From a virus (taxonomy: Duplodnaviria > Caudoviricetes), in IMG/VR virus record IMGVR_UViG_3300037046_000015, positions 1-26,917 of that record: a stretch of DNA of 26,917 nt; one strand, given 5' to 3'. A program made the position numbers and the translations under genes. Positions 3,344 through 24,014 of this stretch are shown here, piece after piece (within the stretch, counting starts at the first letter, position 1; each line of letters opens with the position of its first letter). A model generated the notes under the pieces. It was not told the DNA's origin. It did no database searches and saw nothing but the letters and a program-made list of their open reading frames with translations.

Positions 3344-3372
3344 TATCTACTCCGCCGTCTGTGCTCTGTCAA
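3344..3372 (-). promoter_or_regulatory. Sigma70-like promoter candidate TTGACA-N17-TAGATA upstream of scaffold/capsid
   Basis: Consensus -35 at 3367-3372 in an AT-richer intergenic gap; weak -10. Confidence 0.35.
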
Positions 3373-3385
3373 GTTTTTGGCCCTA

Positions 3386-5600: not shown

Positions 5601-5604
5601 TTTC

Positions 5605-7026: not shown

Positions 7027-7478
7027 GCGTCGTCTCCGTCGATGGTGATCCCACGCTTGTCATTCTGTCCGAAGTTGATGTTGATCGAGAACCCGGCAAT
7101 GTTCCCCTGGTTCAGTTGCGCCGGCTGGTCCAGCCCGCCCCACCGAACCATGTCTTCGATCAGGCGGGTCACGACCTTCTGGTCCGTCTCCGGCGACATG
7201 ATCATCTCGTGGGCCTTGGCCAGGTAGAAGTCCGCCTGCAGCTGGGCCTTAAGGCGGAACGTCGCGCCCTCTTTCTCCAGCTCCTTGCGCAGGCTGGCGA
7301 CCTGCATCACGAACTGCGGGTTCTGGCAGATCGCCTCGAACTGGTGGAACTGCAGGTCGTGGGCGTCGAGGATCGAGTCCACGCTCGTGTTCAGCGCCAC
7401 GTCCATGACGAGGTGCATCGACCACTCTGGGCGCAGTTCAGGCCCGGTCGGCGACAGTAGGACTAACGGCGTTTGCAT
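7023..7478 (-). CDS. Putative terminase small subunit (151 aa)
   Basis: Overlaps the terL start by 4 nt, AAGGAGG SD, helical body with a C-terminal beta-type FSININFG tail. Confidence 0.65.
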   Translation of the reverse strand: MQTPLVLLSPTGPELRPEWSMHLVMDVALNTSVDSILDAHDLQFHQFEAICQNPQFVMQVASLRKELEKEGATFRLKAQLQADFYLAKAHEMIMSPETDQKVVTRLIEDMVRWGGLDQPAQLNQGNIAGFSININFGQNDKRGITIDGDDA

Positions 7479-7498
7479 GACGGACCTCCTTTTGCGCG

Positions 7499-7527
7499 AG
7501 GGTAGCGACTGGTCGTATGTAAAGCAA
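7499..7527 (-). promoter_or_regulatory. Sigma70-like promoter candidate TTGCTT-N17-TACCCT for the packaging/head operon
   Basis: 17-nt spacing, intergenic, downstream of a terminator and upstream of the SD of 7023..7478. Confidence 0.5.
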
Positions 7528-7561
7528 GTACACTCCGTGGTCTACCAAACCTCGATCGGAC

Positions 7562-7589
7562 AAAAGAAAGCCCGCACGGGGCGGGCTTT
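7562..7589 (-). terminator. Intrinsic terminator after the tail-fibre genes
   Basis: AAAGCCCGC-acggg-GCGGGCTTT stem; the minus strand ends ...GGGCTTTCTTTT. Confidence 0.8.
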
Positions 7590-7603
7590 GGTGGGCTTTT
7601 ACT

Positions 7604-8293
7604 CTATCCGGCATACAGGCACAGCCTGATAGCGACCATGCCCGCGTTTTGTATGTTCCAAATCGCTGCCGGCGGCGTGTACTCGCCGCTTTGGCTAGAC
7701 CCTACCGCTGTCGTCGTACTGTGTGTCTGCGTGGTGCCGAGGCTTTGTCCTGAGTAATTGATCAACAGTTCGCCGGCAGGGTAAGGGGCGACCGCCATAG
7801 TCGCAGGGGAGGCAGACGATGCGTAGATCGTGTCTATTACGTACTTGCCGCCAGCTGGGAGAGTAGGCCCAGCAGGGTGCGTGCCCGACGGGGGGCTTAT
7901 CGAGGTGGATGTCGCGGTTCGTCTCAGCGTAGGCGCTGATCCTGCCCCGGAAAAAACCATAAGAGTAGCGACGCAGCGGCTTGCATTCGCTGCAATCACT
8001 ACGTCGCTTAATGACGTAACCGTCCCAACCCTAGCGCCCCAGCTTTCGCTGCCCGATTCAAGTATGTAAGGTCTCCACCCTGTACGGTCTGGGTCGTACT
8101 GAAACCCCTGGAGCCACAGCACAAGCGTGTCGCCGATCTTCGTACCCGCCGGCAGCGGGAATACGAACTGCGTAGTGGTCGTGTCTTCGAGCGGCTTACT
8201 GCGAGTCGTGGCGCCGAGGAACTGGATACCATCTTCCGTTGGGGGTTCTTCGATGCCCCGCCGGATCGCCGAAGCCAATATGCCAAGCATCAT
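7604..8293 (-). CDS. Putative tail-fibre-associated/receptor-binding protein (229 aa)
   Basis: Start MMLGILAS overlaps the fibre gene stop (ATGA) with GGAGG SD. Ser/Thr/Gly-rich, beta-type sequence with PAGTKIGDTLV motif. Confidence 0.55.
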   Translation of the reverse strand: MMLGILASAIRRGIEEPPTEDGIQFLGATTRSKPLEDTTTTQFVFPLPAGTKIGDTLVLWLQGFQYDPDRTGWRPYILESGSESWGARVGTVTSLSDVVIAANASRCVATLMVFSGAGSAPTLRRTATSTSISPPSGTHPAGPTLPAGGKYVIDTIYASSASPATMAVAPYPAGELLINYSGQSLGTTQTHSTTTAVGSSQSGEYTPPAAIWNIQNAGMVAIRLCLYAG

Positions 8294-10128
8294 GGCGTCA
8301 CCTCCAGCGCGCCAATCAGCGTCCACGTATCGGCCGCGACCCGCTTGAGCGTCACCACCGCGTACTGGCTCATGGTCTTGGCGTTATATCCCGCCGGCCA
8401 GTTGAGCGTCACACCGGCGCCGGCCGCGATCGTCACGGCCCCTGCCGCCCCCTGCTCGATGTGTATCTCGGTATCAGCTGCCCACGCCACCGACGATTGC
8501 GGCGGCACGGTGAGCGTGACAGCCGTAGTCGACGTGCAACGCATGTACTTTCCGGCATCCGCCAGGGCCAGCGTTGCCGTCGCAGCGACCGACGCAACCG
8601 CAGACCACGGCTGCACCGTGCCACCTCCGCTTGCTGCAATCGTCAGCGTGTTCGCCACATCGTCGTAGGTGATCGTGACGTTGGCACCCTGCACCAGGGT
8701 GGCGCCCATCACGTCCTGTACCGCCTCGGCGAAGTCGCTGATCGTGGTGCTGGCTTGCGTGCCGGTATGGTTCGCTCGAGCGAGCAGGTATGCGTCGGTC
8801 TGGTTCGCCGTGGCATTTGGAGCGATGCCATCGAGCTTGGTCCGCATCGTGGTGATCTGCGCCTGGAGCTTGCCCATGGCCACCAGCACGGTGTCAGTCG
8901 CAGCGATCACCGCGTCGGTGGCCAGGCTGAGCCCGGCCAGCACCGTGGCGCGCACACGCGCGACGGTGAACCATAGGTTCGTCGCGCCCTCGGCGAGCGT
9001 GTCGGTGTCCGTGTTCGCTGTAGCGCCCGGCGCGATGCCGCCGAGTTTCGTCTTCTCGGTATCCGTGAACGCGTTCGTGTCCGCATTGGACTCGTACAGG
9101 GTCTTGACCTGCGCGGCAGTGACCGGCTCGGCGTTACCTGCCTGAGCCACCCACTCGCTGTCGTTCGCGTCCCAGATATACCGCAGCACAGGCGAACCGA
9201 CGCCCGCGTCCACGTCGGCGTAGTCGCCCGCTACGCCGCTTGGTACGGCCGTGTTCAGCGCTGCCAGGTTTACATAGGTGCCGCGGTAATGCGCGGCCTC
9301 GAGCCCGGCGAGCTTTGTCTTCTCGGCCGCAGTGTAGTTCTCGTCGCTGAGCTGCTTGCCGGCGACCTTGTCGACCTTGAGCGCGAGCTGGTCAGTCAGG
9401 GTCTGGGGCTGCACCGCCGTGTCAGCGAGGGCGCCCTGGGCCGCCGTAGCCGCGCCGATATCACCCGGCGTCGACGGGATAGTCGGAGTGCCGGTCAGGT
9501 CTGCGTACGCGCCGCTGGTCGCAACTGCCGCCAGCAGGGGCAGGTCGCTCGATTGCAGCGGGGTGAACCCCAACGCACTGGTTACGTCCGAAGACAGCAG
9601 GGCGACCTCGCCGGTGCGCCCGTTGAACGACTCGACACCAGTTGCCTCGATCGCCACCCACACGCCGTCGCGTCGCCCGTAGGTGACCCCGTTCGCCGGA
9701 GCCTCCTCGACGTAGGACAACGTCGGCAGCGGCACGGAGCCGGAAGCCGACACGTCACGTACTGTGAACGTCAGCTCATTCTCGTAGGTTTCGCAGATCA
9801 CCTGACCACGCGGGTGCTCTGCGTCGAACGCTACCAGCTGCGCAGTGTACGTACCAGGGGCGAACGCGAAGTCGCTCAGGTCCAGGGTCAGCAGCGACCC
9901 CGCAACCGAGAACGCGTCCGGGTATGTTAGCGAGTCGATCACCACCGGCTCTGGGCCAGGGATGATGAGCAGCAACTGAGTGACCTCGCTGAGGTCTGCC
10001 GGCACGAAGCTCCGGCCGGCGTACTTCTGCACGGTCACGGTGAACTTGTTGTCCCGCCCCGTGTAGACCGTACCGGTCTGGATCAGCCGCAGCTGGCTTG
10101 GCGTTACGTCACCGAGCATGGCGGTCAC
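8290..10128 (-). CDS. Tail fibre protein (612 aa)
   Basis: Mosaic of fibre repeats: YGRRDGVW, VESFNGRTGEV, AVATSGAYADLTGTPTIP, KVDKVAGKQLSDENYTAAEKTKL, LAEGATNLWFT, RANHTGTQ. Confidence 0.85.
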   Translation of the reverse strand: MTAMLGDVTPSQLRLIQTGTVYTGRDNKFTVTVQKYAGRSFVPADLSEVTQLLLIIPGPEPVVIDSLTYPDAFSVAGSLLTLDLSDFAFAPGTYTAQLVAFDAEHPRGQVICETYENELTFTVRDVSASGSVPLPTLSYVEEAPANGVTYGRRDGVWVAIEATGVESFNGRTGEVALLSSDVTSALGFTPLQSSDLPLLAAVATSGAYADLTGTPTIPSTPGDIGAATAAQGALADTAVQPQTLTDQLALKVDKVAGKQLSDENYTAAEKTKLAGLEAAHYRGTYVNLAALNTAVPSGVAGDYADVDAGVGSPVLRYIWDANDSEWVAQAGNAEPVTAAQVKTLYESNADTNAFTDTEKTKLGGIAPGATANTDTDTLAEGATNLWFTVARVRATVLAGLSLATDAVIAATDTVLVAMGKLQAQITTMRTKLDGIAPNATANQTDAYLLARANHTGTQASTTISDFAEAVQDVMGATLVQGANVTITYDDVANTLTIAASGGGTVQPWSAVASVAATATLALADAGKYMRCTSTTAVTLTVPPQSSVAWAADTEIHIEQGAAGAVTIAAGAGVTLNWPAGYNAKTMSQYAVVTLKRVAADTWTLIGALEVTP

Positions 10129-10131
10129 CTA

Positions 10132-10410
10132 TCAGGGAGTCGGGATACCAGCCTGGTACGAAGCTGCCACGCGGTTGAGCTTGCGGGTCCACATCTGCCG
10201 GGTGTCGCTGGCGTTGAATACCGGCGGCTCGCCGTCGAACTCGTACCCGTCAGCCACCATGGTGCGTACCAACGCGTTGAGCTTCAAGTACCACTCGTTG
10301 AGGGTCGGGGTGGGCGAGCGAAACTGTGCGTCGCCGGTAAGCTCGAACACTTCGTTCAGCTTGCGGCGGGTGTTTGCGCGGGTGTCTTGTGTGCGAAATC
10401 GGATTGCCAT
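10132..10410 (-). CDS. Hypothetical protein with three internal repeats (92 aa)
   Basis: GGAG SD; repeats FRTQDTRANTRRKLN, FRSPTPTLNEWYLKLN and FNASDTRQMWTRKLN. Confidence 0.7.
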   Translation of the reverse strand: MAIRFRTQDTRANTRRKLNEVFELTGDAQFRSPTPTLNEWYLKLNALVRTMVADGYEFDGEPPVFNASDTRQMWTRKLNRVAASYQAGIPTP

Positions 10411-10539
10411 CTCGTCGTCTCCGGGCCGGCGTGGGCGTTGCGCCCTCAGTACCGCGGAGATTAGGCCGTCCGTGGCGTGCAGTCAAGGCTCTCCAGGGCC
10501 GGTCGGACTGGCCGCCGGCTACCCGGAGGGGGTTGTACC

Positions 10540-11169
10540 TCAGACCTGGGCTTTGCCGTCCTTGCCCGGGGCCACCGGCTTGACGCCAGGGCCACCGCCG
10601 GTGTACAGACCGTGACCAGAGGCGTCCGTACGCAGGGACGCAGTCGACTTCAAACTCGGCATGCCGTCGGGCAGGTCAGTAGTTTCTTCGCCCATACCAG
10701 CAGCCCGAGCGATTTCCTCGACCACGCGGCGCTGGGCTTCGTGCGGAAACGCGTCGCCGATACGGTCGAAGATATCGGACGCCCGAACCCCGGCGGTAGC
10801 CGCAGCGTCGGGATCATCCACCCACTCCTCGGATTCTTCGTCGTAGACCTTACCCACCACGGAGCGGCCGTTGACCATCTGCGGGCGTGGGGTGTCACCT
10901 ACGCCACCCAGAGTGTTGCGGACTCGAGCCTTCACTTCGAGCTGTTCTTCCACACCTTCGATCGCCGGCTGGATAGCTTTCTCGGCGTTGGAGTCAGCAG
11001 TGGACTGGGCAGCGGCGTCGGCCTCTGCGGTCTTGGCTGCCTCGGCCTGGGCTTTCTTCTCGGCTTCGGTCGGCTCGGACTTCTGCTCAGTAGCCTTGGG
11101 CTGCTCGGCTGGCTTGGTAACATCGGAGTCTGCCGGCTTAGCGGCTGGAGTGTTCTGTTGCTTGGCCAT
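10540..11169 (-). CDS. Hypothetical Ala/Glu/Lys-rich protein, first gene of the morphogenesis arm (209 aa)
   Basis: GGAG SD, phage-like codon usage, disordered N-terminus. Confidence 0.75.
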   Translation of the reverse strand: MAKQQNTPAAKPADSDVTKPAEQPKATEQKSEPTEAEKKAQAEAAKTAEADAAAQSTADSNAEKAIQPAIEGVEEQLEVKARVRNTLGGVGDTPRPQMVNGRSVVGKVYDEESEEWVDDPDAAATAGVRASDIFDRIGDAFPHEAQRRVVEEIARAAGMGEETTDLPDGMPSLKSTASLRTDASGHGLYTGGGPGVKPVAPGKDGKAQV

Positions 11170-11496
11170 GGTGCTTCTCCCGGGAGGTTGGCTTTGCTAT
11201 GGACCCGCTGCGCAGCGGAGGGTTCAGGGTAGGACGCCGGTTAAAATTTGGCCAGAAAATTTTTGGGGAGGATTGTATACTTTGTATACGGAGTAATTTG
11301 GGGCTGTGATATACGGGGCGGGGGTAATAAGTGTCCCCGCGCGCGCGTACTCCCCAGGTACGGGGGTCCCGCCGGAAAAGGATTCTTAGTCCCTTCGTCA
11401 CTTCCCTAGTTTAGGGATGCGCCCTGCAGCGGCTCAGCCCAATGTGCATAATGGGCTCGCCACTACGGCAAACCGAAACTTTTCTGGAGAAACATC

Positions 11497-12084
11497 ATGG
11501 CTCGCACTACCTCCCGTAACGCCCGTAACGCCCAAGCTGCCGCCGTTGTCGCCTTCGACCTCGCCGCGTGGTCGGTCCGTATGGACACTGCAGCGCTGCA
11601 GTTCACAAGCGCCGGTAAAGCGATGCTCGACCTCATCATGGAAGCGCGCGGCAAAGTCGAGGCCGATACCGTCCGCGAAAAGCTGCAGCACGCTTTCGCC
11701 AGCGCCTTTGCTACCACGTATGGCGTGACCTTCGACGAAGCATGCAAAGCTAAGTCAGTCATGAACCGTGTTTCGGACGGTATGGCGGTATTCAAAGCGG
11801 AAACTATGCCAGGCAGTCTGCCAGGCAACCTTCAGCAGGCCGCGGCCGCATGCCGCAAGGCGAATCCGAAAGAGCGCAAGTCTTCGCCACGCCAGCCGGT
11901 AGCGCCGAAGGTCGACGCTAAGGATGTTAACCCGCTGGCCTTACTGCAGGCCGCACTTGAAGCGCTCCGCAAGCAAGCGGCCGACAATCAGCCAGCGCTT
12001 GAGCTAATCGGCGAGCTGGTTGACTTGGCGGGCGACTTGGCCGAAGCGCTTGCCAGCGATGCGGGCGAAACCCAGGCCGCGTAA
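11497..12084 (+). CDS. Hypothetical Ala-rich helical protein, first gene of the early arm (195 aa)
   Basis: GGAGA SD; flanked by dyad copies and followed by a hairpin. Confidence 0.8.
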   Translation: MARTTSRNARNAQAAAVVAFDLAAWSVRMDTAALQFTSAGKAMLDLIMEARGKVEADTVREKLQHAFASAFATTYGVTFDEACKAKSVMNRVSDGMAVFKAETMPGSLPGNLQQAAAACRKANPKERKSSPRQPVAPKVDAKDVNPLALLQAALEALRKQAADNQPALELIGELVDLAGDLAEALASDAGETQAA

Positions 12085-12105
12085 ATCCCTAAAGTAGGGA
12101 CGTTG

Positions 12106-12136
12106 AGCTAAGCCCTTCGGGGCTTAGCTACTTTGT
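12106..12136 (+). terminator. Terminator-like hairpin with UUCG tetraloop
   Basis: AGCTAAGCCC-TTCG-GGGCTTAGCT then ACTTTGT (short U tract). Confidence 0.65.
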
Positions 12137-12264
12137 ATGGATTGTACGGTCTGGTCGGCTTGTACGCTGCCACGCTAAATCTAGCTTAGCTGAGCGCTAA
12201 ATAAGCCAGAATCATACTATCTATACAAAGTAGCTAAGTGTTTTCACGCTATCTATACAAAGTT

Positions 12265-12681
12265 AAATTAAAAACGAGTTTCCACGTGATTTAAGGCTCA
12301 AATAGCAAGAATTGCCGGTCGAATAGCAAGAATTTCCAGACGCTTTGCTAGTCTGGAACCCGCGTGGTTGCTGGGTTGTAGTAAGAAAAGCAAGAATAGC
12401 AAACGAATTTTTGAAGAGACTACGCGCGACCCTGGCTTAGCAGCTAAGCTAGCGTCTAGCGCCTCTGGCTTAGCCGCTAAATCCCTAAACTAGGGATTTA
12501 ACTTAGCTCCTACGCTTCCGCGTATAGGAGTGTCGAAAAAACGCTTTGCTTTTCTTGCTTTTTTGCTACGCGCCTAGTGCCACGCGGCCTGCAGACTAGC
12601 AAGGTTTGCTATTTGGTTTGCTACTGGACGCAAAAATCTTGCTATTCGGGCGCAAATCACGTGACAACTCGTTTTTAATTT
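12265..12681. repeat. Large imperfect inverted repeat with TAGCAA/AAGCAA iterons; candidate replication origin or terminus
   Basis: 12265-12292 vs 12654-12681 match 26/28 as an inverted pair, with further nested matching blocks. AT-rich and ORF-free. Confidence 0.8.
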
Positions 12682-12876
12682 GATTTAGCGCTTATTTAAG
12701 CCTGTAAATCCCTAAATTAGGGATTTGGTCTCCAGTCCAGCTAGCTGGCTTGGAGTTAGCTGGACTGCTAGCTGGCGAATTGAGATAATTTGCGCCTCAA
12801 ATGTACAAACGAACCAAACTAGCCATCCCGGCTAATCTGACCGATATCCCTAAAGTAGGGATTTAAGGAGTCCACC

Positions 12877-13035
12877 ATGACATACGCCACCTTTGCCGCT
12901 GATGTTCTGACCATCGGCGCGCAGTACGCCGCATCTAAGGCCGCACGTCACGACGTGCCTGGCGCCACCATCGCTAATTGGTTCGCCCGTCTGTCTGTCC
13001 GCGCCCAACGCCGCGCGCAAGTGGTGGCAGCATGA
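12877..13035 (+). CDS. Small hypothetical protein (52 aa, MTYATFAADVLTIG...)
   Basis: Below the ORF-track cutoff. TAAGGAG SD directly after a dyad copy; ATGA coupling to the next gene. Confidence 0.75.
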   Translation: MTYATFAADVLTIGAQYAASKAARHDVPGATIANWFARLSVRAQRRAQVVAA

Positions 13036-13268
13036 GCGTCTGGCACGTGGTTTCCGCTTGGCTTATAGGTGGCGCGGTCACGCTGCTGGCGTCCATCGTC
13101 GTGGCGCTGCGGATCGCCGCTGTCCTGCAGTTGGTCGAGGCGTCGCGCCGGACCCGACTAGGCAAGCGTCGTGCGCTGATGCGCCGCATCTTGTGGGAAC
13201 TGGTCGGCCTGGTCTCGCTGGCCACTGCGCTGGGATTCATCGGCGCGTGGGTATGGATCGGCTGGTAA
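13032..13268 (+). CDS. Small membrane protein, two hydrophobic segments (78 aa)
   Basis: ATGA-coupled start; two hydrophobic stretches separated by an Arg-rich loop. Confidence 0.7.
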   Translation: MSVWHVVSAWLIGGAVTLLASIVVALRIAAVLQLVEASRRTRLGKRRALMRRILWELVGLVSLATALGFIGAWVWIGW

Positions 13269-13276
13269 CCGCCTGG

Positions 13277-13350
13277 AGTCGAAACCACATCCCTACTTTA
13301 GGGATGTTGGTCTGCCGGCGATGGTCTCCCGGCACTGATGAGACAGACCA
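13277..13350 (+). ncRNA. Type II hammerhead ribozyme 1 (predicted cleavage after C13312)
   Basis: GTC-GAAA-stem III (CCACATCCCTA ctt TAGGGATGTTGG)-TC / stem I TGCCGG..CCGGCA / CTGATGA-GAC. Loop I TGGTCT pairs with tail AGACCA. Confidence 0.9.
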
Positions 13351-13396
13351 ATATCCCTACTTTAGGGATTTACGAAACTTTCCAGAGGCAACCACC

Positions 13397-13810
13397 ATGT
13401 CCGAGAAAACCTTCCTGTTCCACACGATGCTCGATGAGCTGATCCCCGGCGTCACGTGGCGCGATGACCACGCAATCTGCAACACCACGGCGAACCTGCA
13501 GGCCGGAGGCCACATGGCCACGCTGGAGTGGGTCTGGCCAGTAGGCGAGAACGGTCAGACGCTGGACTGTCTGGACGACGACTGCAGGCCGATGGTCAAC
13601 CGCGTGCTGGACACGTTCAACCGCCACGTGGCGAACGGCCGAGTCAAGTCCGTGACGTGCTACATGGCGCCGCGTAAGTCGGAGACGGCCGTGTGCGACC
13701 CCGGCTGGCTGGAGTGGGGCGTGGTCCTGCGCGACGAAGCTGGCGAGCGCGTGCTGTATATCGCCCATATCCAACGCCGGATCGGTGCTGACGTGGAGCG
13801 CCACACATGA
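13397..13810 (+). CDS. Hypothetical protein (137 aa, MSEKTFLFH...)
   Basis: AGAGG SD; the upstream extension in the ORF track crosses the ribozyme and is unlikely to be translated. Confidence 0.75.
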   Translation: MSEKTFLFHTMLDELIPGVTWRDDHAICNTTANLQAGGHMATLEWVWPVGENGQTLDCLDDDCRPMVNRVLDTFNRHVANGRVKSVTCYMAPRKSETAVCDPGWLEWGVVLRDEAGERVLYIAHIQRRIGADVERHT

Positions 13811-14013
13811 GCGCCTGCCGTATACGCGAAAACTTCGACCGTATAAACCACCGCAACCCAGTGTCGGGACACGAGTGGGTAGAACACGGCCCCACGACGA
13901 CGTGGAGCGTGGTTGGACCCGTCGGTGTGGTCAGTAACCACCGCACCGAAGCCGGCGCCCAAACAGCGCTTGCCGAGTGGGAAGCGTTCTACGCCAAGCA
14001 TCCTTTGTCCTAG
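13807..14013 (+). CDS. Hypothetical protein (68 aa)
   Basis: ATGA coupling, GGAG upstream; stop abuts ribozyme 2. Confidence 0.7.
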   Translation: MSACRIRENFDRINHRNPVSGHEWVEHGPTTTWSVVGPVGVVSNHRTEAGAQTALAEWEAFYAKHPLS

Positions 14014-14087
14014 AGTCGAAACCACATCCCTAAAGTAGGGATGTGGTCCGGTAGGATTGACCGCCTGCCGCTGATGAGACAGGTCAA
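14014..14087 (+). ncRNA. Type II hammerhead ribozyme 2 (predicted cleavage after C14048)
   Basis: GTC-GAAA-CCACATCCCTA aag TAGGGATGTGG-TC / CGGTAGG..CCTGCCG / CTGATGA-GAC. Loop TTGACC pairs with tail GGTCAA. Confidence 0.92.
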
Positions 14088-14113
14088 ACCACAACTGATT
14101 CGGAGATACGATC

Positions 14114-14350
14114 ATGCACGACTATGACCGGCTGGACGAACTACGCGAAGCGCGCGCATTACTGGCCGATGAACTGGCCGAAGCCGCCGAGTGCGTCCGC
14201 TATCACCACGACGGCGCAGACCCCGCGAAAATGGTCGGCGAATACCCTGAGCTGACCGAGTGGCGCCGGTGCGCCGAGGAACTGGCTGCCTGGGACGAAG
14301 AAAACGCGGCGGAGCTTGTCGCGCTTGAGGCCACGACGTCACCCTGCTGA
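14114..14350 (+). CDS. Acidic hypothetical protein (78 aa)
   Basis: GGAG SD within the shared leader. Confidence 0.75.
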   Translation: MHDYDRLDELREARALLADELAEAAECVRYHHDGADPAKMVGEYPELTEWRRCAEELAAWDEENAAELVALEATTSPC

Positions 14351-14366
14351 TCACTGGAGAATGACC

Positions 14367-14603
14367 ATGCCCGCAACAACGCCTAACCTTCTGGACCGGC
14401 TGACCGCCGCCGAAGATACGCTGCAACACGCGCCGAGCTACGTGCTGGAAGAAGCGCGCCGCGCCATCCACGACGCCAACACGGTCATCACCCTGATATT
14501 CGCCACGCTGGACGGCCAGGAGTGGGATTCCGACACGTCGCAGATCATCGCCGACCACTTGGCCGACTACGGTCTGGTCGTGCGCGGCTGCGACGAAGAC
14601 TGA
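14367..14603 (+). CDS. Acidic hypothetical protein (78 aa; alternative start 14361)
   Basis: GGAG at 14356-14359; contains LDGQEWDSDT. Confidence 0.75.
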   Translation: MPATTPNLLDRLTAAEDTLQHAPSYVLEEARRAIHDANTVITLIFATLDGQEWDSDTSQIIADHLADYGLVVRGCDED

Positions 14604-14611
14604 CCGACGAG

Positions 14612-14701
14612 AGTCGAAACCACATCCGCTATCGCAGGAAATCCCTACTTTAGGGATGTGGTCCGCCGGAAATAGCCTCCCGGCGCTGACGAGACAGGCT
14701 A
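14612..14701 (+). ncRNA. Type II hammerhead ribozyme 3 with enlarged stem III loop (predicted cleavage after C14663)
   Basis: GTC-GAAA-CCACATCC...GGATGTGG-TC / CGCCGG..CCGGCG / CTGACGA-GAC. Loop TAGCCT pairs with tail AGGCTA. Confidence 0.9.
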
Positions 14702-14727
14702 ACCACAACTGATTCGGAGATACGATC

Positions 14728-15351
14728 ATGCCTGAAGAACGGACGGTCCTCGTGTATAAATTCGACGAGCTGAGCGACAAGGCGAAAGAGAAAGCGCGCG
14801 ACTGGTATCGCAGTGGCCAGCTGGAGTATGACTGGTGGGACTCGGTTTATGAGATGGCCGACACCGCCGCGAAGTGTCTGGGCATCGACATTGATCGCAA
14901 GGGCAGGAGCATGCCTGCGATCTACTTTAGCGGCTTCTGTAGCCAAGGTGACGGCGCCTGCTTCGAGGGCTCATGCCGCTACAAGAAAGGCTGGCGCGCC
15001 GCCCTACTGCACGAGTTTGGCCCTGGCGACACGCTGAACGAGCTGCTGAGTATCGGCCAGGCGCTGCAGGACGCCCAACGGCGCCAGTTCTACAAGCTGG
15101 AGGCCGTGTGCCGGCACCGTGGGCACTACCAGCACAGCGGCTGCATGAGTGTCGCGGCTAGCCACGCCGACAGCATGTACCGCGATATCGGTGACGACGA
15201 GGACTACATCCGAGACGCGCTCCGATCCTTCGCCGACTGGATATACGACCGCCTGGAGTCCGAGCACGACTGGTTGACAGGCGACGAGCAGGTCGACGAG
15301 TCGATCCGTGCGAATGAGTACGAGTTCGACGAAGACGGGGGCCTGGCATGA
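14728..15351 (+). CDS. Conserved acidic phage/ICE protein (207 aa); family often loosely labelled 'antitoxin of TA stability system', function unproven
   Basis: VYKFDELSDKAKEKARDWYR, IYFSGFCSQGDGACF and ANEYEFDEDG motifs, recognised from memory. Confidence 0.7.
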   Translation: MPEERTVLVYKFDELSDKAKEKARDWYRSGQLEYDWWDSVYEMADTAAKCLGIDIDRKGRSMPAIYFSGFCSQGDGACFEGSCRYKKGWRAALLHEFGPGDTLNELLSIGQALQDAQRRQFYKLEAVCRHRGHYQHSGCMSVAASHADSMYRDIGDDEDYIRDALRSFADWIYDRLESEHDWLTGDEQVDESIRANEYEFDEDGGLA

Positions 15352-15446
15352 AAACCCAGACGATGTACCACAACACCAACTGCTTGATCGGCTTTCTGGC
15401 CGGCCTGGCGTTCGTCCTCTTGATCGCGCCATGGGGGCTGGTATGA
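15348..15446 (+). CDS. Tiny membrane peptide (32 aa, MKTQTMYHNTNCLIGFLAGLAFVLLIAPWGLV)
   Basis: Fills the gap exactly with ATGA overlaps at both ends; not in the ORF track. Confidence 0.65.
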   Translation: MKTQTMYHNTNCLIGFLAGLAFVLLIAPWGLV

Positions 15447-15793
15447 CCACGAAACCGCGCCACACCACAACCAAGCGCCGGCACAGCGTCGACGGGCGTC
15501 GAGCGACCGACATAGCCCGCCGTGCGCAGCTGGAACGTGAGCTTAGCGACGCTCTGACTGAGCTGGCGAACAAGGACCAGCACATCCCTAAAGTAGGGAT
15601 GTGCCGAAAAGTCAGGCTGGTGGTCATCCTGACCGTGCGCCACATCAACGGCGGAGGACTGCCACATCGCTGGGAGTTCACCGCGCCGGCTGGCACGTGG
15701 AAGACCGAAGCCGAGCACCTGGCACGCCTGGCAGCCCGCAAGGCCGGACTGACCGTCCACGCCCATATTGACACCGAGGAGCGACTGGTATGA
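15443..15793 (+). CDS. Basic hypothetical protein (116 aa) containing an in-frame dyad copy
   Basis: ATGA coupling at both ends. Confidence 0.65.
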   Translation: MTTKPRHTTTKRRHSVDGRRATDIARRAQLERELSDALTELANKDQHIPKVGMCRKVRLVVILTVRHINGGGLPHRWEFTAPAGTWKTEAEHLARLAARKAGLTVHAHIDTEERLV

Positions 15794-15996
15794 GCCAGAT
15801 GACCGACAAAGAATATGTCGAAGACGGTGGGCAGCATTGCCCGTTCTGTCGCAGCGAGAACATCCAAGGCGGATCGCTGCAAGCCGAAGGCCGCACAGCA
15901 TGGCAATCCGTCAGCTGTGATGACTGTGGCCGTGGTTGGCAGGACACGTACCAGATGACCGGCTGGACCGACGAGTTCAACGACAACGAGGACTGA
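15790..15996 (+). CDS. Small zinc-ribbon protein (68 aa)
   Basis: CPFC and CDDC pairs; GAGGAG SD. Confidence 0.8.
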   Translation: MSQMTDKEYVEDGGQHCPFCRSENIQGGSLQAEGRTAWQSVSCDDCGRGWQDTYQMTGWTDEFNDNED

Positions 15997-15999
15997 GCG

Positions 16000-16218
16000 A
16001 TGACCCACAAGTTCACCGCGTTCTGCCAGCAGGCGGACGGCAAGGGCACGATCTGGATCGGTACGGTCGAGGTTGAGGAAAACAGCTGCACGGTCGCTGC
16101 AGCGGCAGCACGTGAGGAATGCGCCGCTGCGTGGGGCTACGACCCCGAGGAGGTCCATTGCCTCGGTCTGGCCGTGGGCGACGTGGATATCGTCTACTGG
16201 GAGGACATAAACGAATGA
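16000..16218 (+). CDS. Hypothetical protein (72 aa)
   Basis: GAGGA SD, coupled to the next gene. Confidence 0.75.
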   Translation: MTHKFTAFCQQADGKGTIWIGTVEVEENSCTVAAAAAREECAAAWGYDPEEVHCLGLAVGDVDIVYWEDINE

Positions 16219-16583
16219 ACCTCAAGACCGTGAAAACCGCCGAGCTGATCGGGCCGGCGCTGGATTGGGCGGTGGCTAAGGCTATCGACCTGGAAGATGA
16301 AACGCTGGACCCGCTCACATGGGTGGAAACAGCCCATCCGTCTGGTTGCTACAGCTTCTCGACCGACTGGAGCCAAGGCGGGCCGCTGATCGACAAGATC
16401 GGCGGCTTCGAGCTTAAAGTCTGGTTGGAGTCTACGCCTGAAACCAAATGCGAAGCCCATGTCCATAGCTACGAGGGTAACTGGATCGTCTTCGGACCCA
16501 CGCCCCTCATCGCCGCCATGCGCTGCCTGGTAGCGGCCAAGCTGGGCGATACAGTACAGGTGCCAAAGGAGCTACTGCCATGA
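16215..16583 (+). CDS. DUF2591/NinX-like phage protein (122 aa)
   Basis: ELIGPALDWAVAKA, STDWSQGGPLI and GPTPLIAAMRC motifs. Confidence 0.85.
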   Translation: MNLKTVKTAELIGPALDWAVAKAIDLEDETLDPLTWVETAHPSGCYSFSTDWSQGGPLIDKIGGFELKVWLESTPETKCEAHVHSYEGNWIVFGPTPLIAAMRCLVAAKLGDTVQVPKELLP

Positions 16584-16786
16584 TAGCCGCCCTGCTGCTG
16601 TACGTCTGCGCCAGCTCGTTGCTGGATAACTGCGAAGTCTACGTCGAGCACACCTGGGAAGGCCCGACGGCCTCCGTCGAGTGCAACGAGTGGCTGCGCA
16701 CCAACCGAAACCGCGTCCCGCTGCTGTATCGCCAGCGCGGGGAGCACGTGTTCTACGTCTGCGACACACAATCAGCTGGAGAATGA
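16580..16786 (+). CDS. Small Cys-containing protein with hydrophobic N-terminus (68 aa)
   Basis: ATGA coupling, AAGGAG SD, four Cys. Confidence 0.7.
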   Translation: MIAALLLYVCASSLLDNCEVYVEHTWEGPTASVECNEWLRTNRNRVPLLYRQRGEHVFYVCDTQSAGE

Positions 16787-16840
16787 TTGACCGGACCCTG
16801 GGCGCCTGCAATACTGGCGCCCTGTGGTTCTGGTTTACAT

Positions 16841-16930
16841 GAGGTTGTATGTGGCAGCACTCGGCGCTTGCGGCGGCAGGCGTGCCCCGCCGGGCCAGCA
16901 TTAGCTGTGAGTGCTGCCACATACAACTTC
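16841..16930 (+). other. Long intergenic RNA hairpin, candidate RNase III site or ncRNA
   Basis: Perfect 19-bp inverted repeat 16844-16862 / 16909-16927 plus inner stem CGGCGG/CCGCCG. Confidence 0.7.
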
Positions 16931-16981
16931 CCTACTTTAGGGATTTGCGCCACCAACCGAAGCTATTCAGGAGTCACCGCC

Positions 16982-17479
16982 ATGAGAAAAATCACCCAGG
17001 AATCCATCGACGCGTTCACCTCCGGCGTTGACTTTCGCAAGCAGAACATGAGCGTCGAAGTGCGGCCGTTCCAAGGCGACAGTGTGCTCGACTCCGTCAT
17101 CCTGCTGCTCCACGGCAACCCGATTGCCCGCTACGTCAAGGCTAGCGGCCTCTCCACACTGCAGGTCTGCGACGGCAACCACCAGACCGTCACCACCAAG
17201 GACCGCCTGAACGGCCTGCCGGGCGTGACTGTGAACCAGCGTAAGGGCGACTGGTATCTCAACGGCGTCAAGTGGGACGGCAGCTGGACGTTCGTCGGCA
17301 GTCAGCTGGTCGTCAAGCCGTTCTCCGCCGCCCAGTGGATCGTCGAGTACCCGCACAGCGCCGACCGTGAGCCGGTGTTCCTGCCCCGCGCCGCGGCGAT
17401 CACCTTCGCCCACGTCGAGGCAGCGAACCACGGCTACAAGCTGGTGATCGACGGTGACTTCGTGGAGGCTGCAGCATGA
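16982..17479 (+). CDS. Conserved hypothetical phage protein (165 aa, MRKITQES...)
   Basis: AGGAG SD; LHGNPIA and TVTTKDRLNGL motifs. Confidence 0.8.
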   Translation: MRKITQESIDAFTSGVDFRKQNMSVEVRPFQGDSVLDSVILLLHGNPIARYVKASGLSTLQVCDGNHQTVTTKDRLNGLPGVTVNQRKGDWYLNGVKWDGSWTFVGSQLVVKPFSAAQWIVEYPHSADREPVFLPRAAAITFAHVEAANHGYKLVIDGDFVEAAA

Positions 17480-17607
17480 CAACCGTAGAGTTCGAGCTGG
17501 TGGCCTTCTCCATCCTGGCGTTCATCTTCGGCGCCGGCTGGGGCTACTACACTGCCGCCGCCAAGTGGCGAACCCGGTACTACAGACTGTTGGAGCGGCT
17601 GCAATGA
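17476..17607 (+). CDS. Small single-pass membrane protein (43 aa, MTTVEFELVAFSILAFIFGAGWG...)
   Basis: GGAGG SD, ATGA overlaps at both ends; not in the ORF track. Confidence 0.7.
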   Translation: MTTVEFELVAFSILAFIFGAGWGYYTAAAKWRTRYYRLLERLQ

Positions 17608-17855
17608 GCCTCCTACACCCATACCTGCGCCGGAACATCGTCGAGGCTATCGCCAAGGCACGCAAGTCCACTGAGCGCGGCGAGCTGGCGCACCACGTCC
17701 GTGACGCCGGCAGCTTGATCAAGCAGCAGCTGCGAGAGACAGAGCAGGAGCTGGTCAAGGTCATGCAGATTCAGGTCGCCCGCCGTAAGGAGCTGCTCGC
17801 CCTGCTGGAGCAGCTCAACACCGTAACCGCCGAGAAAATTGAATCCCTAAAGTAG
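17604..17855 (+). CDS. Coiled-coil hypothetical protein (83 aa)
   Basis: ATGA coupling; its TAG stop is supplied by a dyad copy. Confidence 0.7.
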   Translation: MSLLHPYLRRNIVEAIAKARKSTERGELAHHVRDAGSLIKQQLRETEQELVKVMQIQVARRKELLALLEQLNTVTAEKIESLK

Positions 17856-17870
17856 GGATGTGAGGTTCCC

Positions 17871-18416
17871 ATGTCCGACCAACAGCAACAAGAAGCCCCG
17901 CAGATCAGCAGCGACGAGCTGGCCCGGCTGACCGCCGAGTTCCTGGCACGTGGTTGTCAGATAGCGGTCTGCGCCCACGGCGAGAGCGGTATCGAGCCTA
18001 GCTTCGGCGGTACGAAGATGGAACGCCAGGCCACCCTCAACCGCATCGAGCGCCAGCGCCAGGCCACGACGAAGGCCGACGCCAAGCTGGTGACAGCGCT
18101 GCGCGAGTTCATCGACGGCGGTAGCGTCGGCGAGCCGCCGAAGATGCCGTTCTCCAGGCTGCGCCGCATCGTCGAGACGTACTTCGAGGGCGACGAGCGA
18201 GCGACTGCACTGCTGCCGCTCAACCAGACCCAGCGCGCCGAAGTGCGGGCGAAGGAGACGTTGCCGAAGGTCAAGGCCGCCGTCGAGGCGGGCGTGATCG
18301 GCCTCAAGAAGATCGCCAAACACATCGGCGAACCCTACACCTACGTGTCGAAGCTGAACCAACAGTTCAACCTCAATCTGCCCAAGGAACCGCCAGGGTT
18401 CGGGAGGGACAAGTGA
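17871..18416 (+). CDS. Putative transcription regulator: SutA-like N-terminal segment plus HTH-like C-terminus (181 aa)
   Basis: DELARLTAEFLARGCQI resembles the SutA RNAP-binding helix; GLKKIAKHIGEPYTYVSKL is HTH-like. GAGGT SD. Confidence 0.55.
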   Translation: MSDQQQQEAPQISSDELARLTAEFLARGCQIAVCAHGESGIEPSFGGTKMERQATLNRIERQRQATTKADAKLVTALREFIDGGSVGEPPKMPFSRLRRIVETYFEGDERATALLPLNQTQRAEVRAKETLPKVKAAVEAGVIGLKKIAKHIGEPYTYVSKLNQQFNLNLPKEPPGFGRDK

Positions 18417-18670
18417 TCACTCGTACTTCGTTCAACAAGCGGTTCCTGCAGAACATCGACGAGGCGCTGCGCGCCGCCGCGTACAACTCCCGCATGTGGT
18501 CGGCTGCTGCCGGCTGCAGCTGCAAGGGGATGGCCTACGTTATGAACGCACGCAAGAAGGTGATGCTGCGCGTAGACCACAATCGCGGTGAGCCGCAGGC
18601 GTTCCAGTTCTACGACAATCGCCAGCGCAACGTCACCGAGCTGGTACTGGCGGCGCTGAGGGCTTCCTAA
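18413..18670 (+). CDS. Hypothetical protein (85 aa)
   Basis: GTGA coupling with GGAGG SD. Confidence 0.7.
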   Translation: MITRTSFNKRFLQNIDEALRAAAYNSRMWSAAAGCSCKGMAYVMNARKKVMLRVDHNRGEPQAFQFYDNRQRNVTELVLAALRAS

Positions 18671-18978
18671 TGGCCTACGCCGACGTCGACATGCAAGCCA
18701 AGCTGTTCGAACAGGGGTTCCACACGTTCAACGCCGGCGGTGCTGATGGGTTCAGCCGGCTGCGTGAGGGCCAGATACAGACGATCGTGTGTACTTGGGA
18801 GCGGCAGGACCGTCGCAGCCTGGAGGTTCCACCGCCCGACGAGGTGTTCTGGATCGCCAGCGTAGGCGTACTCGACGGCGCAGCGCTCCGCCTGGTGGTG
18901 CCGGCCGCTGAGCGGTGCCCGGACCCGATAACTTGCTTTGTGAGTGCAGAGGTGAGGGGATGGAGCCGGATGATCTGA
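18670..18978 (+). CDS. Hypothetical protein, shared C-terminal-motif group (102 aa)
   Basis: TAATG coupling; ends PDPITCFVSAEVRGW. Confidence 0.7.
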   Translation: MAYADVDMQAKLFEQGFHTFNAGGADGFSRLREGQIQTIVCTWERQDRRSLEVPPPDEVFWIASVGVLDGAALRLVVPAAERCPDPITCFVSAEVRGWSRMI

Positions 18979-19244
18979 AGGCACTAGAACAAGCCGGGTT
19001 CGAACCCCGCGAGGGGAGGCCAGGCTGTTACCGAAGGGTGAAGCCAAAGCCGTGGCCATTCAGCGACGCGAGGACTCGGCCTGCGTTCGACTACCACTAC
19101 ATTCGACAGAGTAAGTGGCCTTCGCGCCACCACCCTGGGCATTGGTGGGTGGCTGACAACTATGACCCACAGTGGACGTCGCCGTACTTCGAAACGGCAG
19201 CGGCCTGCCTAATGTTCGCGGAGGTGCAGGGATGGACAGAATAG
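18960..19244 (+). CDS. Hypothetical protein, shared C-terminal-motif group (94 aa)
   Basis: GAGG upstream of ATG 18960; ends FETAAACLMFAEVQGW. Confidence 0.7.
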   Translation: MEPDDLKALEQAGFEPREGRPGCYRRVKPKPWPFSDARTRPAFDYHYIRQSKWPSRHHPGHWWVADNYDPQWTSPYFETAAACLMFAEVQGWTE

Positions 19245-19519
19245 ACATGCCGCCTGGCTGGGAGTGCGGGCAGCGGAACCTAACGACGGTCGGACACGCT
19301 CTGGTTTGGACATATGTGTCGAATGCCAGGGCGCGAGTGCTCCGCATCCAGTTCGACGTCCACCAGGGCGGGTATCTGTTCGGCGTGGTGAGTTCGCCCG
19401 GCCGACCGAAAGCGCACGACCTGACGGTCGACCCGTACACATTCAGCCCAATCGCGCCGATCGCCTTCGACACACCACAAGCCGCTGCTGTTTGGGCAGC
19501 GGTCGAGGACCTGGTATGA
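19232..19519 (+). CDS. Hypothetical protein, shared C-terminal-motif group (95 aa)
   Basis: GGAGGT SD; ends FDTPQAAAVWAAVEDLV. Confidence 0.7.
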   Translation: MDRIDMPPGWECGQRNLTTVGHALVWTYVSNARARVLRIQFDVHQGGYLFGVVSSPGRPKAHDLTVDPYTFSPIAPIAFDTPQAAAVWAAVEDLV

Positions 19520-19839
19520 CCGACAAGTATGAAGAACAGATGGTCGCGCTGGGGTTCGTTTACACCGGCTCCGGCGAATACCTGTTGGAGAGCGACGGCG
19601 CCAGGTACTGGGTGTGGAAAACCCCCGCACGTAGCATCGACGGATGGCTAGAACCGTACCCACCTGGAACATGGGTCGCAGACCTCGGACTGAGTACCGA
19701 TGACCTGCGGGATGGTAAAGGCGTAGCGTTCGACGACCCCGTGTCGGCCGGCGTGTACATCATCACTGCCTGCGGCCCGCGCACCAACCCTGAAGCGGTT
19801 GGAGATTGCTTGCCTGAAGCACCCTTTGCTGTAAACTAG
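19516..19839 (+). CDS. Hypothetical protein, shared C-terminal-motif group (107 aa)
   Basis: ATGA coupling, GAGGA SD; contains FDDPVSAGVYI. Confidence 0.7.
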   Translation: MTDKYEEQMVALGFVYTGSGEYLLESDGARYWVWKTPARSIDGWLEPYPPGTWVADLGLSTDDLRDGKGVAFDDPVSAGVYIITACGPRTNPEAVGDCLPEAPFAVN

Positions 19840-19929
19840 GCATACATTTTGAAACACCGCTTCACTACCACGACACACCAACCAACATCCCTACTTTAGG
19901 GATTCACCAAAGCTGTTCAGGAGAACACC

Positions 19930-21093
19930 ATGAAAGTCAACGAACTGTCGCCGATCATCGTCGCGCTGTACAACGCCAACCGCACCGGGATGTTCTGGGG
20001 CGCACCGGGCATCGGCAAGTCGGACAGCTTCCGCGCTGCCGCTGAGTACATCAAGAACATGCTGGGCCTGACCGGCCCCGTGCTTGAGCGTCACCAAGTC
20101 AGGTCGTTCCTCGCCAAGGGCGGCGACATTACCCAGGCGTTCGGCCTGTTCGACCTGCGTCTGTCGCAGATGGACCCGGTGGAAGTTGGTGGCCTACCCC
20201 GCGAGAACCGCACCAACGGAACCATGGAGAAACTGCCGCCGAGCTGGTTCGCTCACGAGTTGCGCGCCGATCTGCCTGACTTCGGCATCCTCCTGCTGGA
20301 GGAGCTGCCGTCCGCACCGCTGAGCGTGCAGACCACGGCGTACCAGATCACGCTGGACAAGGTGATCGAGGACTTCAAGCTGAAGGAAGGCTGGGCCACG
20401 TTCGCAGCGGGTAACCGCCTGACCGACGGCGGCCAGTATTTCAAGATGCCGAACGCGCTGGCCAACCGCCTGTGCCACATCGACGTCGAGTCCGACGTGG
20501 ACAGCTGGTGCCAGTGGGCGGTCGAGAAGAACATCGACCACAGCCTGATCGCGTTCATCCGCTTCCGCCCTGACCTGCTCAACACCACTGACGAGCACAT
20601 CAAGAACCGCGGTAAGGGCTTTGCCTTCGCCACCGAGCGCCAGTGGGCAGCGGTCAATGACTTCCTGACCAACAACCAGTCGCCGAGCGATACCACTGTT
20701 CACGCCGTAGTAGGTGGTCTGGTCGGTAGCGGCCCGGCTGCTGAGTACGTCAGCTTCCGTGCGGTGTGGAACAACATGCCGAGCATCGACGGCATCCTGA
20801 TCGAGCCGGACACTGCGATCCTCCCCGAGGACGCGGCCACCCAGTTCGCAGTGATGACTGCGCTCGCTGCCCGTGCCAGCTACGACAACCTGAGTCAGTG
20901 CCTGAAGTACACCGACCGCCTGATGGCGAAGGGTCGCCCAGAGATGGCAGTGATGTTCATCAAGGACATGCAGCTTCGCCAGAACACCGCGTGGGAAAAG
21001 GCGAAGACCGCGGGCCAGTCGTTCCAGCGCGCTGAGCAGTCGCCGGCGTACTCGATCTGGGCCTCGAAGAACGTCGAGCTGTTCGGTCAGTAA
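19930..21093 (+). CDS. MoxR-like AAA+ ATPase (387 aa)
   Basis: Walker A GAPGIGKS, DLRLSQ, Walker B LLLEE, sensor AGN, arginine finger ALANR; VWA partner nearby. Confidence 0.88.
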   Translation: MKVNELSPIIVALYNANRTGMFWGAPGIGKSDSFRAAAEYIKNMLGLTGPVLERHQVRSFLAKGGDITQAFGLFDLRLSQMDPVEVGGLPRENRTNGTMEKLPPSWFAHELRADLPDFGILLLEELPSAPLSVQTTAYQITLDKVIEDFKLKEGWATFAAGNRLTDGGQYFKMPNALANRLCHIDVESDVDSWCQWAVEKNIDHSLIAFIRFRPDLLNTTDEHIKNRGKGFAFATERQWAAVNDFLTNNQSPSDTTVHAVVGGLVGSGPAAEYVSFRAVWNNMPSIDGILIEPDTAILPEDAATQFAVMTALAARASYDNLSQCLKYTDRLMAKGRPEMAVMFIKDMQLRQNTAWEKAKTAGQSFQRAEQSPAYSIWASKNVELFGQ

Positions 21094-21095
21094 CC

Positions 21096-21440
21096 GTGTC
21101 GGCGCCCGCACACAAGACCGCCCCGGCGCAAGCACGTCGGGAGGTCGAGGCCCGCACCGGCACCTGCCAGAACATGAGGACGCTTGGGTACAGGGCTGCC
21201 AAGTACGCCCTTACTGGGCACCCTACTCGGTTCGAGTCCAGACCACGTGGTAGGAACGACACCGAGAACTGGATAATTCAGCGGACGATCGACAAGCGCT
21301 GGCGGGTAGCCTGCGTGGAGCCAGAAGGTATGCGCTGGCCGAACGAACGCAAAGTCGATTCGCCCTTATTCGATGGGCCGGTAGCCGCAGCGCTATGGCT
21401 TCAAGTGGAGAAAGCAAATGGCACAGTCCGTTTTAGCTAG
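21096..21440 (+). CDS. Hypothetical protein, shared C-terminal-motif group (start uncertain, 21096 or 21174)
   Basis: Fills the gap between ATPase and VWA genes; ends FDGPVAAALWLQVEKANG. Confidence 0.6.
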   Translation: MSAPAHKTAPAQARREVEARTGTCQNMRTLGYRAAKYALTGHPTRFESRPRGRNDTENWIIQRTIDKRWRVACVEPEGMRWPNERKVDSPLFDGPVAAALWLQVEKANGTVRFS

Positions 21441-22563: not shown

Positions 22564-22880
22564 ACGCCGGGCCGTGGGGCAACCCGCAGCTGGTGAGCGT
22601 GACCAAGCCCGAGGGTGTGCCGTCAATGGCACCCTCGGACATGGCGCTGGAAATGCTCGCGTCGAGGGGGTTCACACGGTCGCCGGCGAACAGCTGGCGG
22701 TGGGTGAAGTGGACGCAGGTGCAGCCGATAGGCGAGTACGAGGTGCTCGCCTGGGTAGACAGGACCGCCTCTGGCTGGCACCTGACCAAGTTCGACGACC
22801 ACGGGGCGCTGATGCACAACACGTTCACGCTCGACCTCGAGGCGCTACTGGTGTTCGCTACAGTCGAGGGGTGGATATGA
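22560..22880 (+). CDS. Hypothetical protein, shared C-terminal-motif group (about 106 aa; alternative start 22626)
   Basis: GTGA coupling; ends DLEALLVFATVEGWI. Confidence 0.65.
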   Translation: MNAGPWGNPQLVSVTKPEGVPSMAPSDMALEMLASRGFTRSPANSWRWVKWTQVQPIGEYEVLAWVDRTASGWHLTKFDDHGALMHNTFTLDLEALLVFATVEGWI

Positions 22881-23170
22881 GCAGGTGGCAGCCGCTGTGG
22901 CAGACGTTCGGGTTCGACGCGGGGGAGGTGGTGCGAGAGCTGCTGTCTGAGTTGCTAGTGGACGCCGAGGCTATCCAGAATCGGCCGACCCCTACCGACC
23001 CATTGGGAGGAACGCCTCGACTACACGCCCGGTGGCAGTGGGACCACCTACGCTACCAGATGATGATCGCAATACAACTGGACGGCGAGTGGTCACCAAC
23101 GCTCGGAGCCAAGGCACTGGAGGTGTGGGTGTGCGTCCAGTGGCCGCACGTATTCAGGAGAGCAACATGA
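22877..23170 (+). CDS. Trp-rich hypothetical protein (97 aa)
   Basis: ATGA coupling at both ends, GAGG SD. Confidence 0.65.
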   Translation: MSRWQPLWQTFGFDAGEVVRELLSELLVDAEAIQNRPTPTDPLGGTPRLHARWQWDHLRYQMMIAIQLDGEWSPTLGAKALEVWVCVQWPHVFRRAT

Positions 23171-23954: not shown

Positions 23955-24014
23955 TGTAAACTGTGTACACATCCCTACTTTAGGGATTAACCAAAACTGT
24001 TCGGAGACAAAACG

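Follow-up and report, generated by a model that had tools for sequence, protein, structure and literature searches.

Type II hammerhead ribozymes between predicted early gene pairs of a Caudoviricetes phage carry a dispersed palindrome, a likely DNA operator, as stem III

The window analyzed here is the entire 26,917-base DNA of a virus record (IMGVR_UViG_3300037046_000015) that is ~43% complete. In its left part, capsid, portal, and terminase genes lie on the minus strand; from position 11497 onward, the plus strand carries small genes, an ATPase, a vWA/metallopeptidase gene, and a DNA ligase. Complete relatives are 58 to 65 kb long with terminal repeats, and base 1 of one of them, G001 (terminase 90 to 91% identical), corresponds in the alignment to window position 11281. 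The plus-strand arm thus likely starts near a genome end, and we infer that it is early. A preliminary description of this DNA had spoken of an early transcript, and that wording rests on position. A 39-nt tandem repeat lies at 3027 to 3260, inside a predicted gene (2363 to 3337) in the scaffold position, and positions 15790 to 15996 encode a small zinc-ribbon protein with a weak match to the restriction alleviation protein Lar (E 1e-4, below the cut-off).

No near DNA match was found among 50,697 annotated phages. The closest capsid protein is that of Pseudomonas phage Rollin (55%), and this, an MvaT domain in the relative G011, and a weak SutA-domain match are sequence leads that point to Pseudomonas. 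The early arm of G011 (locus L127) encodes, at 2280 to 3310, 4843 to 5268, and 9531 to 9803, a ParA-like ATPase with a small partner, the MvaT-domain protein, and a weak HicB-like match; these genes hint at a plasmid-like state in Pseudomonas. The tyrosine integrase family PF00589 was found in none of the three complete relatives, so the window phage is probably not an integrated prophage.

The features with which this analysis is concerned are listed below; gene boundaries in the early arm are heuristic calls.

11402 to 23987, unstranded: span of 14 copies of a 17-bp palindrome (7-bp arms, 3-nt spacer), a likely operator; 0.32 copies expected by chance
11497 to 12084, plus strand: first gene of the early arm, encoding an all-helical protein of 195 aa, a candidate palindrome reader by context
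12761 to 12789, plus strand: candidate sigma-70-type promoter of the transcript; 9 of 12 positions match the consensus, which taken alone does not exceed chance
12877 to 13035 and 13032 to 13268, plus strand: two small genes before HH1, no PHROG match
13278 to 13350, plus strand: HH1, type II hammerhead with pseudoknot (RF02276, 47.6 bits; descriptor)
13397 to 13810 and 13807 to 14013, plus strand: two small genes between HH1 and HH2, no tblastn match in 12 related records
14015 to 14087, plus strand: HH2, type II hammerhead with pseudoknot (RF02276, 38.6 bits; descriptor)
14087 to 14117, plus strand: 31-nt ribozyme tail, ribosome-binding site, and ATG, identical to 14701 to 14731
14114 to 14350 and 14367 to 14603, plus strand: two small genes between HH2 and HH3, no tblastn match in 12 related records
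14613 to 14701, plus strand: HH3, type II hammerhead with pseudoknot (RF02276, 35.6 bits; descriptor)
14701 to 14731, plus strand: second copy of the 31-nt tail, ribosome-binding site, and ATG repeat, identical to 14087 to 14117
14728 to 15351, plus strand: first gene after HH3, phrog_5162, unknown function

The three intergenic elements HH1, HH2, and HH3 are type II pseudoknot hammerheads and are predicted to be self-cleaving. In each, CUGANGA, GAAA, and an NUH triplet occur intact in type II order, stems I and III are loop closed, stem II is open, and all stems pair; stem II is GTC/GAC, only 3 bp. A script check of core and stems gave HH1 a 6-bp stem I, the pseudoknot TGGTCT/AGACCA, and a predicted cut after C13312; HH2 a 7-bp stem I with one G-U pair, TTGACC/GGTCAA, and a predicted cut after C14048; and HH3 a 6-bp stem I, TAGCCT/AGGCTA, and a predicted cut after C14663. 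The pseudoknot between loop I and the 3' tail is therefore 6 bp in all three with three different sequences, where the type II criterion is at least four pairs. The preliminary description had proposed three such plus-strand elements, cut sites after 13312, 14048, and 14663, and stem I and pseudoknot sequences that differ between copies yet always pair. RF02276, our descriptor, and the script check agree with it on the type II core, the script check also supports the cuts, and the pairing is confirmed by covariation across nine copies. Two features were absent from that description: the identity of stem III with a dispersed 17-bp palindrome and a 17-nt insertion in HH3.

The Infernal-type Rfam search that it had suggested, run with the single family RF02276, found all three elements at the scores listed above (E 1e-10 to 2e-7). 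HH3, with its long stem III insertion, scored 35.6 bits (E 1.6e-7), below the gathering score of 37 bits. A scan of the whole window against Rfam recovered two of the three (47.6 and 35.6 bits) and missed HH2. With the pseudoknot left out, the descriptor matched three times in the window and once in total in 300 shuffles. When nine copies from six records were aligned, 94% of cells paired and 17 of 26 pairs had double changes; slid controls gave 32 to 44%, and none of 500 shuffles reached the observed pairing, a count that is not a probability since the structure was drawn from these same, related sequences. The exact ribozyme pattern had no match in viral contigs. Contigs in two DNA runs matched only the 3' half of HH2 (14058 to 14089), with other flanks, and probably represent an unrelated element with a similar hammerhead.

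It is possible in principle that these elements are relics with no cleavage activity in the cell, as HH3 lies under the Rfam cut-off, HH1 can misfold, and Perreault et al. 2011, in the available text, found 4 of 18 consensus hammerheads inactive when tested (PMC3088659). We regard this as very improbable given that none of the three has lost a core base, each has a 6-bp pseudoknot, and the pairing covaries. The misfolding of HH1 involves a second palindrome copy just 3' of it (13353 to 13369), pairing with which gives a predicted competing fold of -43.7 kcal/mol versus -37.7 kcal/mol for the hammerhead fold, the pseudoknot being left uncounted. HH1 alone among the three has such a fold, and since transcription finishes HH1 at 13350, ahead of the second palindrome, the ribozyme may cut first.

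The elements share one layout: stop codon, ribozyme with palindrome, A/C-rich spacer, ribosome-binding site, and ATG. In agreement with an earlier remark that each begins near a stop codon, in-frame stops end 12, 4, and 12 nt 5' of GAAA in HH1, HH2, and HH3; the ATGs lie 65 to 85 nt 3' of the predicted cut sites. Processing of the mRNA into short units by the array is plausible from the sequence. The claim that the array yields two-gene units fits the first three pieces and fails for the piece after 14663, which runs through many overlapping genes. This processing inference was reasonable and is already in print, since Perreault et al., in the text available, propose that polycistronic phage RNA is processed into operon- or gene-length mRNAs (PMC3088659). 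The same text describes clustered hammerheads, triple arrays included, that flank genes or short blocks in prophages, type II hammerheads with a pseudoknot between loop I and the 3' tail, and cleavage of three arrays in vitro and of one in E. coli (PMC3088659). As far as that text goes, the array itself is of a kind known since 2011, with which it shares the type II topology, pseudoknot, short stem II, triple arrangement, and variable flanked genes (PMC3088659). What differs from those arrays, as described there, is that the palindrome dispersed through the genome here forms stem III and follows the motif of each phage; also, the prophage setting described there is often near an integrase, whereas PF00589 is absent from 3/3 complete relatives here (PMC3088659).

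The 14 palindrome copies start at 11402, 12085, 12481, 12708, 12846, 13289, 13353, 14026, 14641, 15584, 16928, 17843, 19887, and 23971, and the structural arm (1 to 11400) of the window has none. Three of them constitute stem III of the ribozymes: 13289 to 13305 in HH1; 14026 to 14042, inside a 12-bp stem III, in HH2; and 14641 to 14657 in HH3, where the palindrome is whole and the 17-nt insertion lies elsewhere in the stem. The inner 6 bp of the arms are invariant, and the outermost pair varies at 3 of the 14 sites. The spacer has no fixed orientation: on the sense strand it is AAG at five sites and CTT at six, and both also occur inside the three ribozymes. Core variants with one mismatch were found neither in the window nor in the first 20 kb of G001 nor in G011. 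Among the nine aligned ribozymes, the six core pairs of the palindrome are identical in eight, whereas the stem III pairs next to them and those of stem I show changes in both partners, from which it is clear that sequence, and not only pairing, is kept in the palindrome arms of stem III.

The palindrome occupies seven of the eight gaps of at least 60 nt in the early arm, by the heuristic gene calls, and sharing of a gap with an intergenic ribozyme was therefore nearly forced. A palindrome, moreover, makes a ready hairpin, cost-free in a stem where any sequence is accepted. Six of the 14 copies lie no more than 39 nt from a start codon. A copy is located ~95 to 240 nt 5' of gene 11497 not only in G001, G002, and G011 but in all seven further loci, of which L152 and L153 look like duplicates; at 9 of 10 loci, it is 30 to 48 nt 5' of a -10-like hexamer of this first gene, hexamers being called with a loose pattern. 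A -10 region like that of the candidate promoter at 12761 to 12789 is present in G001 as well. One copy (15584 to 15600) is inside a reading frame, and the equivalent place is occupied in G001. An AT-rich gap without clear genes at 12100 to 12870 holds three copies, nested long inverted repeats (12260 to 12388 versus 12559 to 12686), and short TAGCAA-type repeats (TAGTAA-type in G001); it is possibly a replication origin. Thirty single matches to the palindrome elsewhere are mostly due to chance (one copy only in three of the four records checked). A loxP-like role was considered and rejected, as a tyrosine recombinase is absent from all three complete relatives.

The invariant arms, the two spacer orientations, and the copy before the first gene favor a DNA site: from its sequence, the palindrome is likely bound by a dimeric protein, which fits better than an RNA hairpin. 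Alternatively, the palindrome could act on RNA everywhere, as a stabilizing hairpin or by recruiting an RNA-binding protein, with no DNA operator and with the ribozyme setting the hairpin at the new 3' end. Nearly all copies are found in the plus-strand early arm, with many of them immediately 3' of stop codons or 13 to 39 nt before starts, and extended pairing averages 4 bp at ribozyme sites (n = 8) versus 1.7 bp elsewhere (n = 51), all of which would be expected of an RNA element. However, the copies 5' of the -10-like hexamer at 9 of 10 loci are outside the predicted transcript, the arms of the clade motif display neither covariation nor G-U changes (L150 has one variant site), the loop is found in either orientation, and the 7-bp stem core has only three G-C pairs. 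We therefore consider a role confined to RNA quite unlikely. Hairpin promoters of the N4 type have a strand-specific loop sequence that is read by the virion RNA polymerase, in contrast to the loop here, which occurs in both orientations on the sense strand; a search for a virion RNA polymerase was silent here, but it was silent in controls too.

Dispersed sites of this general kind have precedents. In the available text on Cluster O mycobacteriophages, 17-bp dyads likewise have invariant 7-bp arms, a 3-bp spacer, and no orientation bias, in phages with no integrase and with a predicted dimeric DNA-binding protein (PMC4351075). Their reader and function are given there as unknown (PMC4351075). 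Those sites, as described in that text, are genome-wide, many in coding regions, and are not tied to starts, whereas the palindromes here are limited to one arm, near starts and the first promoter, and occur inside ribozymes (PMC4351075). Cluster A stoperators (L5, Bxb1) are similar in being many, intergenic, and of phage-specific consensus, and in the portion of the source available they are proposed to block elongation (PMC3029335). They are described there as asymmetric, 13 bp long, oriented with transcription, and read by a known HTH repressor, in contrast to the symmetric, unoriented sites here (PMC3029335).

We compared stem III across the relatives of the window. All nine hammerheads of the clade, in six records, carry their own genome's palindrome in stem III, as do all seven hammerheads in the five records found without selecting for the palindrome. 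G001 has nine palindrome copies with other outer bases, all within its first 10.3 kb, and its single hammerhead carries that variant. G011 holds a third variant 13 times, and its two hammerheads both contain it; G011 is not independent, since the search pattern that retrieved it already specified the palindrome as stem III. The palindrome of G002 is a different one, present seven times; one copy forms stem III of the sole hammerhead-like element there, which is marked by an extra U after the core, a pseudoknot of only 4 bp, and no Rfam match. The metagenome loci L149 and L153 likewise have their own palindrome as stem III. A single event may account for eight of the nine clade copies. The palindromes in G003 and G006, which lie in tandem or end-region repeats, were left out of these counts.

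More distant records (L057, L065, L079, L080, L086, L087, L101, L102, and L144) carry a minimal type II hammerhead, in some cases two, with a 4-bp stem II and no repeated palindrome; in all 15 hammerheads of these nine records, stem III is unrepeated in the DNA available (terminase ~45%; loci mostly 7 to 15 kb, several near-identical). The descriptor found no hammerhead in G003 to G009 or phage Rollin, searched without the last 0.5 to 2 kb of G004, G005, and G007, suggesting that the ribozymes are dispensable in relatives; G003 has a weak RF02276 match. In the literature that we searched, which most subscription papers fell outside, we found no natural hammerhead whose stem III is an operator, and a stem III palindrome tracking each genome is absent from the texts that our searches made available.

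One explanation for this tracking would be that cleavage is regulated, with a bound protein, a ribosome at the stop codon, or the competing fold of HH1 deciding the cut. A protein could do so either as a polymerase-pausing roadblock inside the ribozyme or by binding the RNA hairpin. The palindrome is in stem III of 9/9 clade hammerheads, even after the motif change in G002, and in HH3 it is whole despite the 17-nt insertion; together these two cases, which go beyond what forced gap sharing would give, point to upkeep of the site at that place rather than to control of cleavage. Moreover, both spacer orientations are found inside ribozymes, and the 15 hammerheads of distant relatives have an unrepeated stem III. 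An in-frame stop 1 to 13 nt before GAAA in all nine clade copies (one upstream frame being doubtful) would suit a ribosome-dependent switch, but short gaps alone explain nearby stop codons. The more stable alternative fold of HH1 would suit a conformational switch, but it is confined to HH1, which is finished before the second palindrome emerges. On balance, regulated cleavage is possible and, in our view, unlikely.

If the palindrome is a DNA site, its likely reader would be a phage protein, and the best candidate by context is the product of gene 11497. This gene is flanked by palindromes, is common to G001, G002, and G011, and is absent from the other nine records compared. It belongs to no Pfam family; its N-domain model is confident (pLDDT 89.8) and is followed by a basic linker and a C-terminal helical hairpin. 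Fold searches with both models, and a sequence search, gave no clear match, the best fold match (Z 7.1, rmsd 4.2 over 85 residues) being within the chance range, and a DNA-binding fold is still possible. Atlas rows to Phage_Repressor_c and DUF3102 score 0.78 to 0.82, below the threshold of 0.85, and provide a lead only. The protein has 57 matches among metagenome proteins and falls in a viral Atlas cluster with 730 members; a search of 185,579 prokaryote genomes gave no relative, and hence no host or prophage was found by this route. In the G002 homologue, two otherwise near-invariant residues differ, beside an invariant NRV, in what is a single case.

Two other candidates for the reader were rejected. 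The ORF at 17871 to 18416 (181 aa) has a palindrome just 5' of it, a weak SutA-RBD match (E 0.0025, below the cut-off), an end that looks HTH-like by eye, and three matches in a large protein collection, one of which is itself. It is, from these sequence features, possibly a phage transcription factor, but it has no tblastn match in G011, which has the same motif. The KorA/HTH-like proteins of L149 and G011 have no match in the window or G001.

The modules also appear to mark places where genes come and go. Their number is three in the window, one in G001, two in G011, and one in G002, and the flanked genes differ between the genomes compared. In G001, the homologue of the 13032 region is followed by one module, with the pseudoknot and tail of HH3, and then directly by the homologue of gene 14728 (68% identical); the four genes that sit between HH1 and HH3 in the window are missing. 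This single module without the four genes and the identical 31-nt ends of HH2 and HH3 suggest that the modules are cassette junctions. From these sequences, they are likely recombination junctions for gain and loss of accessory gene pairs, gain and loss of the four genes being indistinguishable between G001 and the window. Contigs of four DNA runs, two of which may be the source of the window, showed no joint that skips from ribozyme to ribozyme, which is no evidence either way as contigs drop rare variants.

Alternatively, the module may be a self-spreading recombination junction in which cleavage is tolerated, brings little benefit, or releases cassette RNAs for re-ligation or capture. The varying copy number, the different flanked genes, and the shared 31 nt would all be consistent with such an element. 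We nonetheless find this explanation quite improbable, since stem I and the pseudoknot have diverged among the three copies with pairing kept, which points to selection for fast cleavage, and a 3-bp stem II disfavors re-ligation. In addition, Perreault et al., in the text available, detected no spliced or circular products in arrays (PMC3088659).

Taken together, these observations lead us to favor, with a rough probability of 0.62, a reading in which intact hammerheads between early-operon gene pairs would cut the mRNA constitutively and stem III would be a likely DNA operator reused as an RNA hairpin. After cleavage, the upstream product would end with the palindrome hairpin and a 2',3'-cyclic phosphate, and the downstream product would begin with a 5'-OH, stem I, and the pseudoknot, 65 to 85 nt before the ATG. 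As only the 3-bp stem II joins the products, their topology suggests that the pieces would separate. Both new ends would presumably be shielded from host nucleases, among which RNase E prefers 5'-phosphate ends. Ends that resist host nucleases would in turn give separate lifetimes to three two-gene pieces and one long piece. In the T7 early transcript, RNase III cuts the long RNA between genes, and the ends are hairpin protected. The array here offers an analogy only, as its RNA is predicted to cut itself, leaving a 5'-OH and a cyclic phosphate rather than a host-made 5'-phosphate.

On the DNA, nearly all long gaps of the early arm would likely be bound, through the palindrome, by a phage protein acting as a dimer. 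Because stem III tolerates any paired sequence, the same stretch could serve both the DNA and the RNA use. Judging from G001, copies of the whole unit would likely act as recombination junctions for accessory gene pairs. In a more ambitious version, which we hold to be doubtful, operator and ribozyme would be functionally fused: a phage regulator on the palindrome would control elongation together with self-cutting, and the cassettes would be exchangeable, protein-switched units.

According to the available text of a 2019 review, the biological role that hammerheads play in bacteria and phages has yet to be defined (PMC6765202). This clade constitutes a compact test case, with three canonical ribozymes in 1.4 kb, a relative that has one module and lacks the genes enclosed here, and a stem III that follows the palindrome of each phage. 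If the palindrome were neither an operator nor involved in gating, the array would be one more example of the 2011 observation. If it is an operator, one 17-bp stretch would be read on DNA by a protein and would fold as a stem of a catalytic RNA. If binding also gates cleavage, these phages would possess a natural protein-controlled hammerhead.
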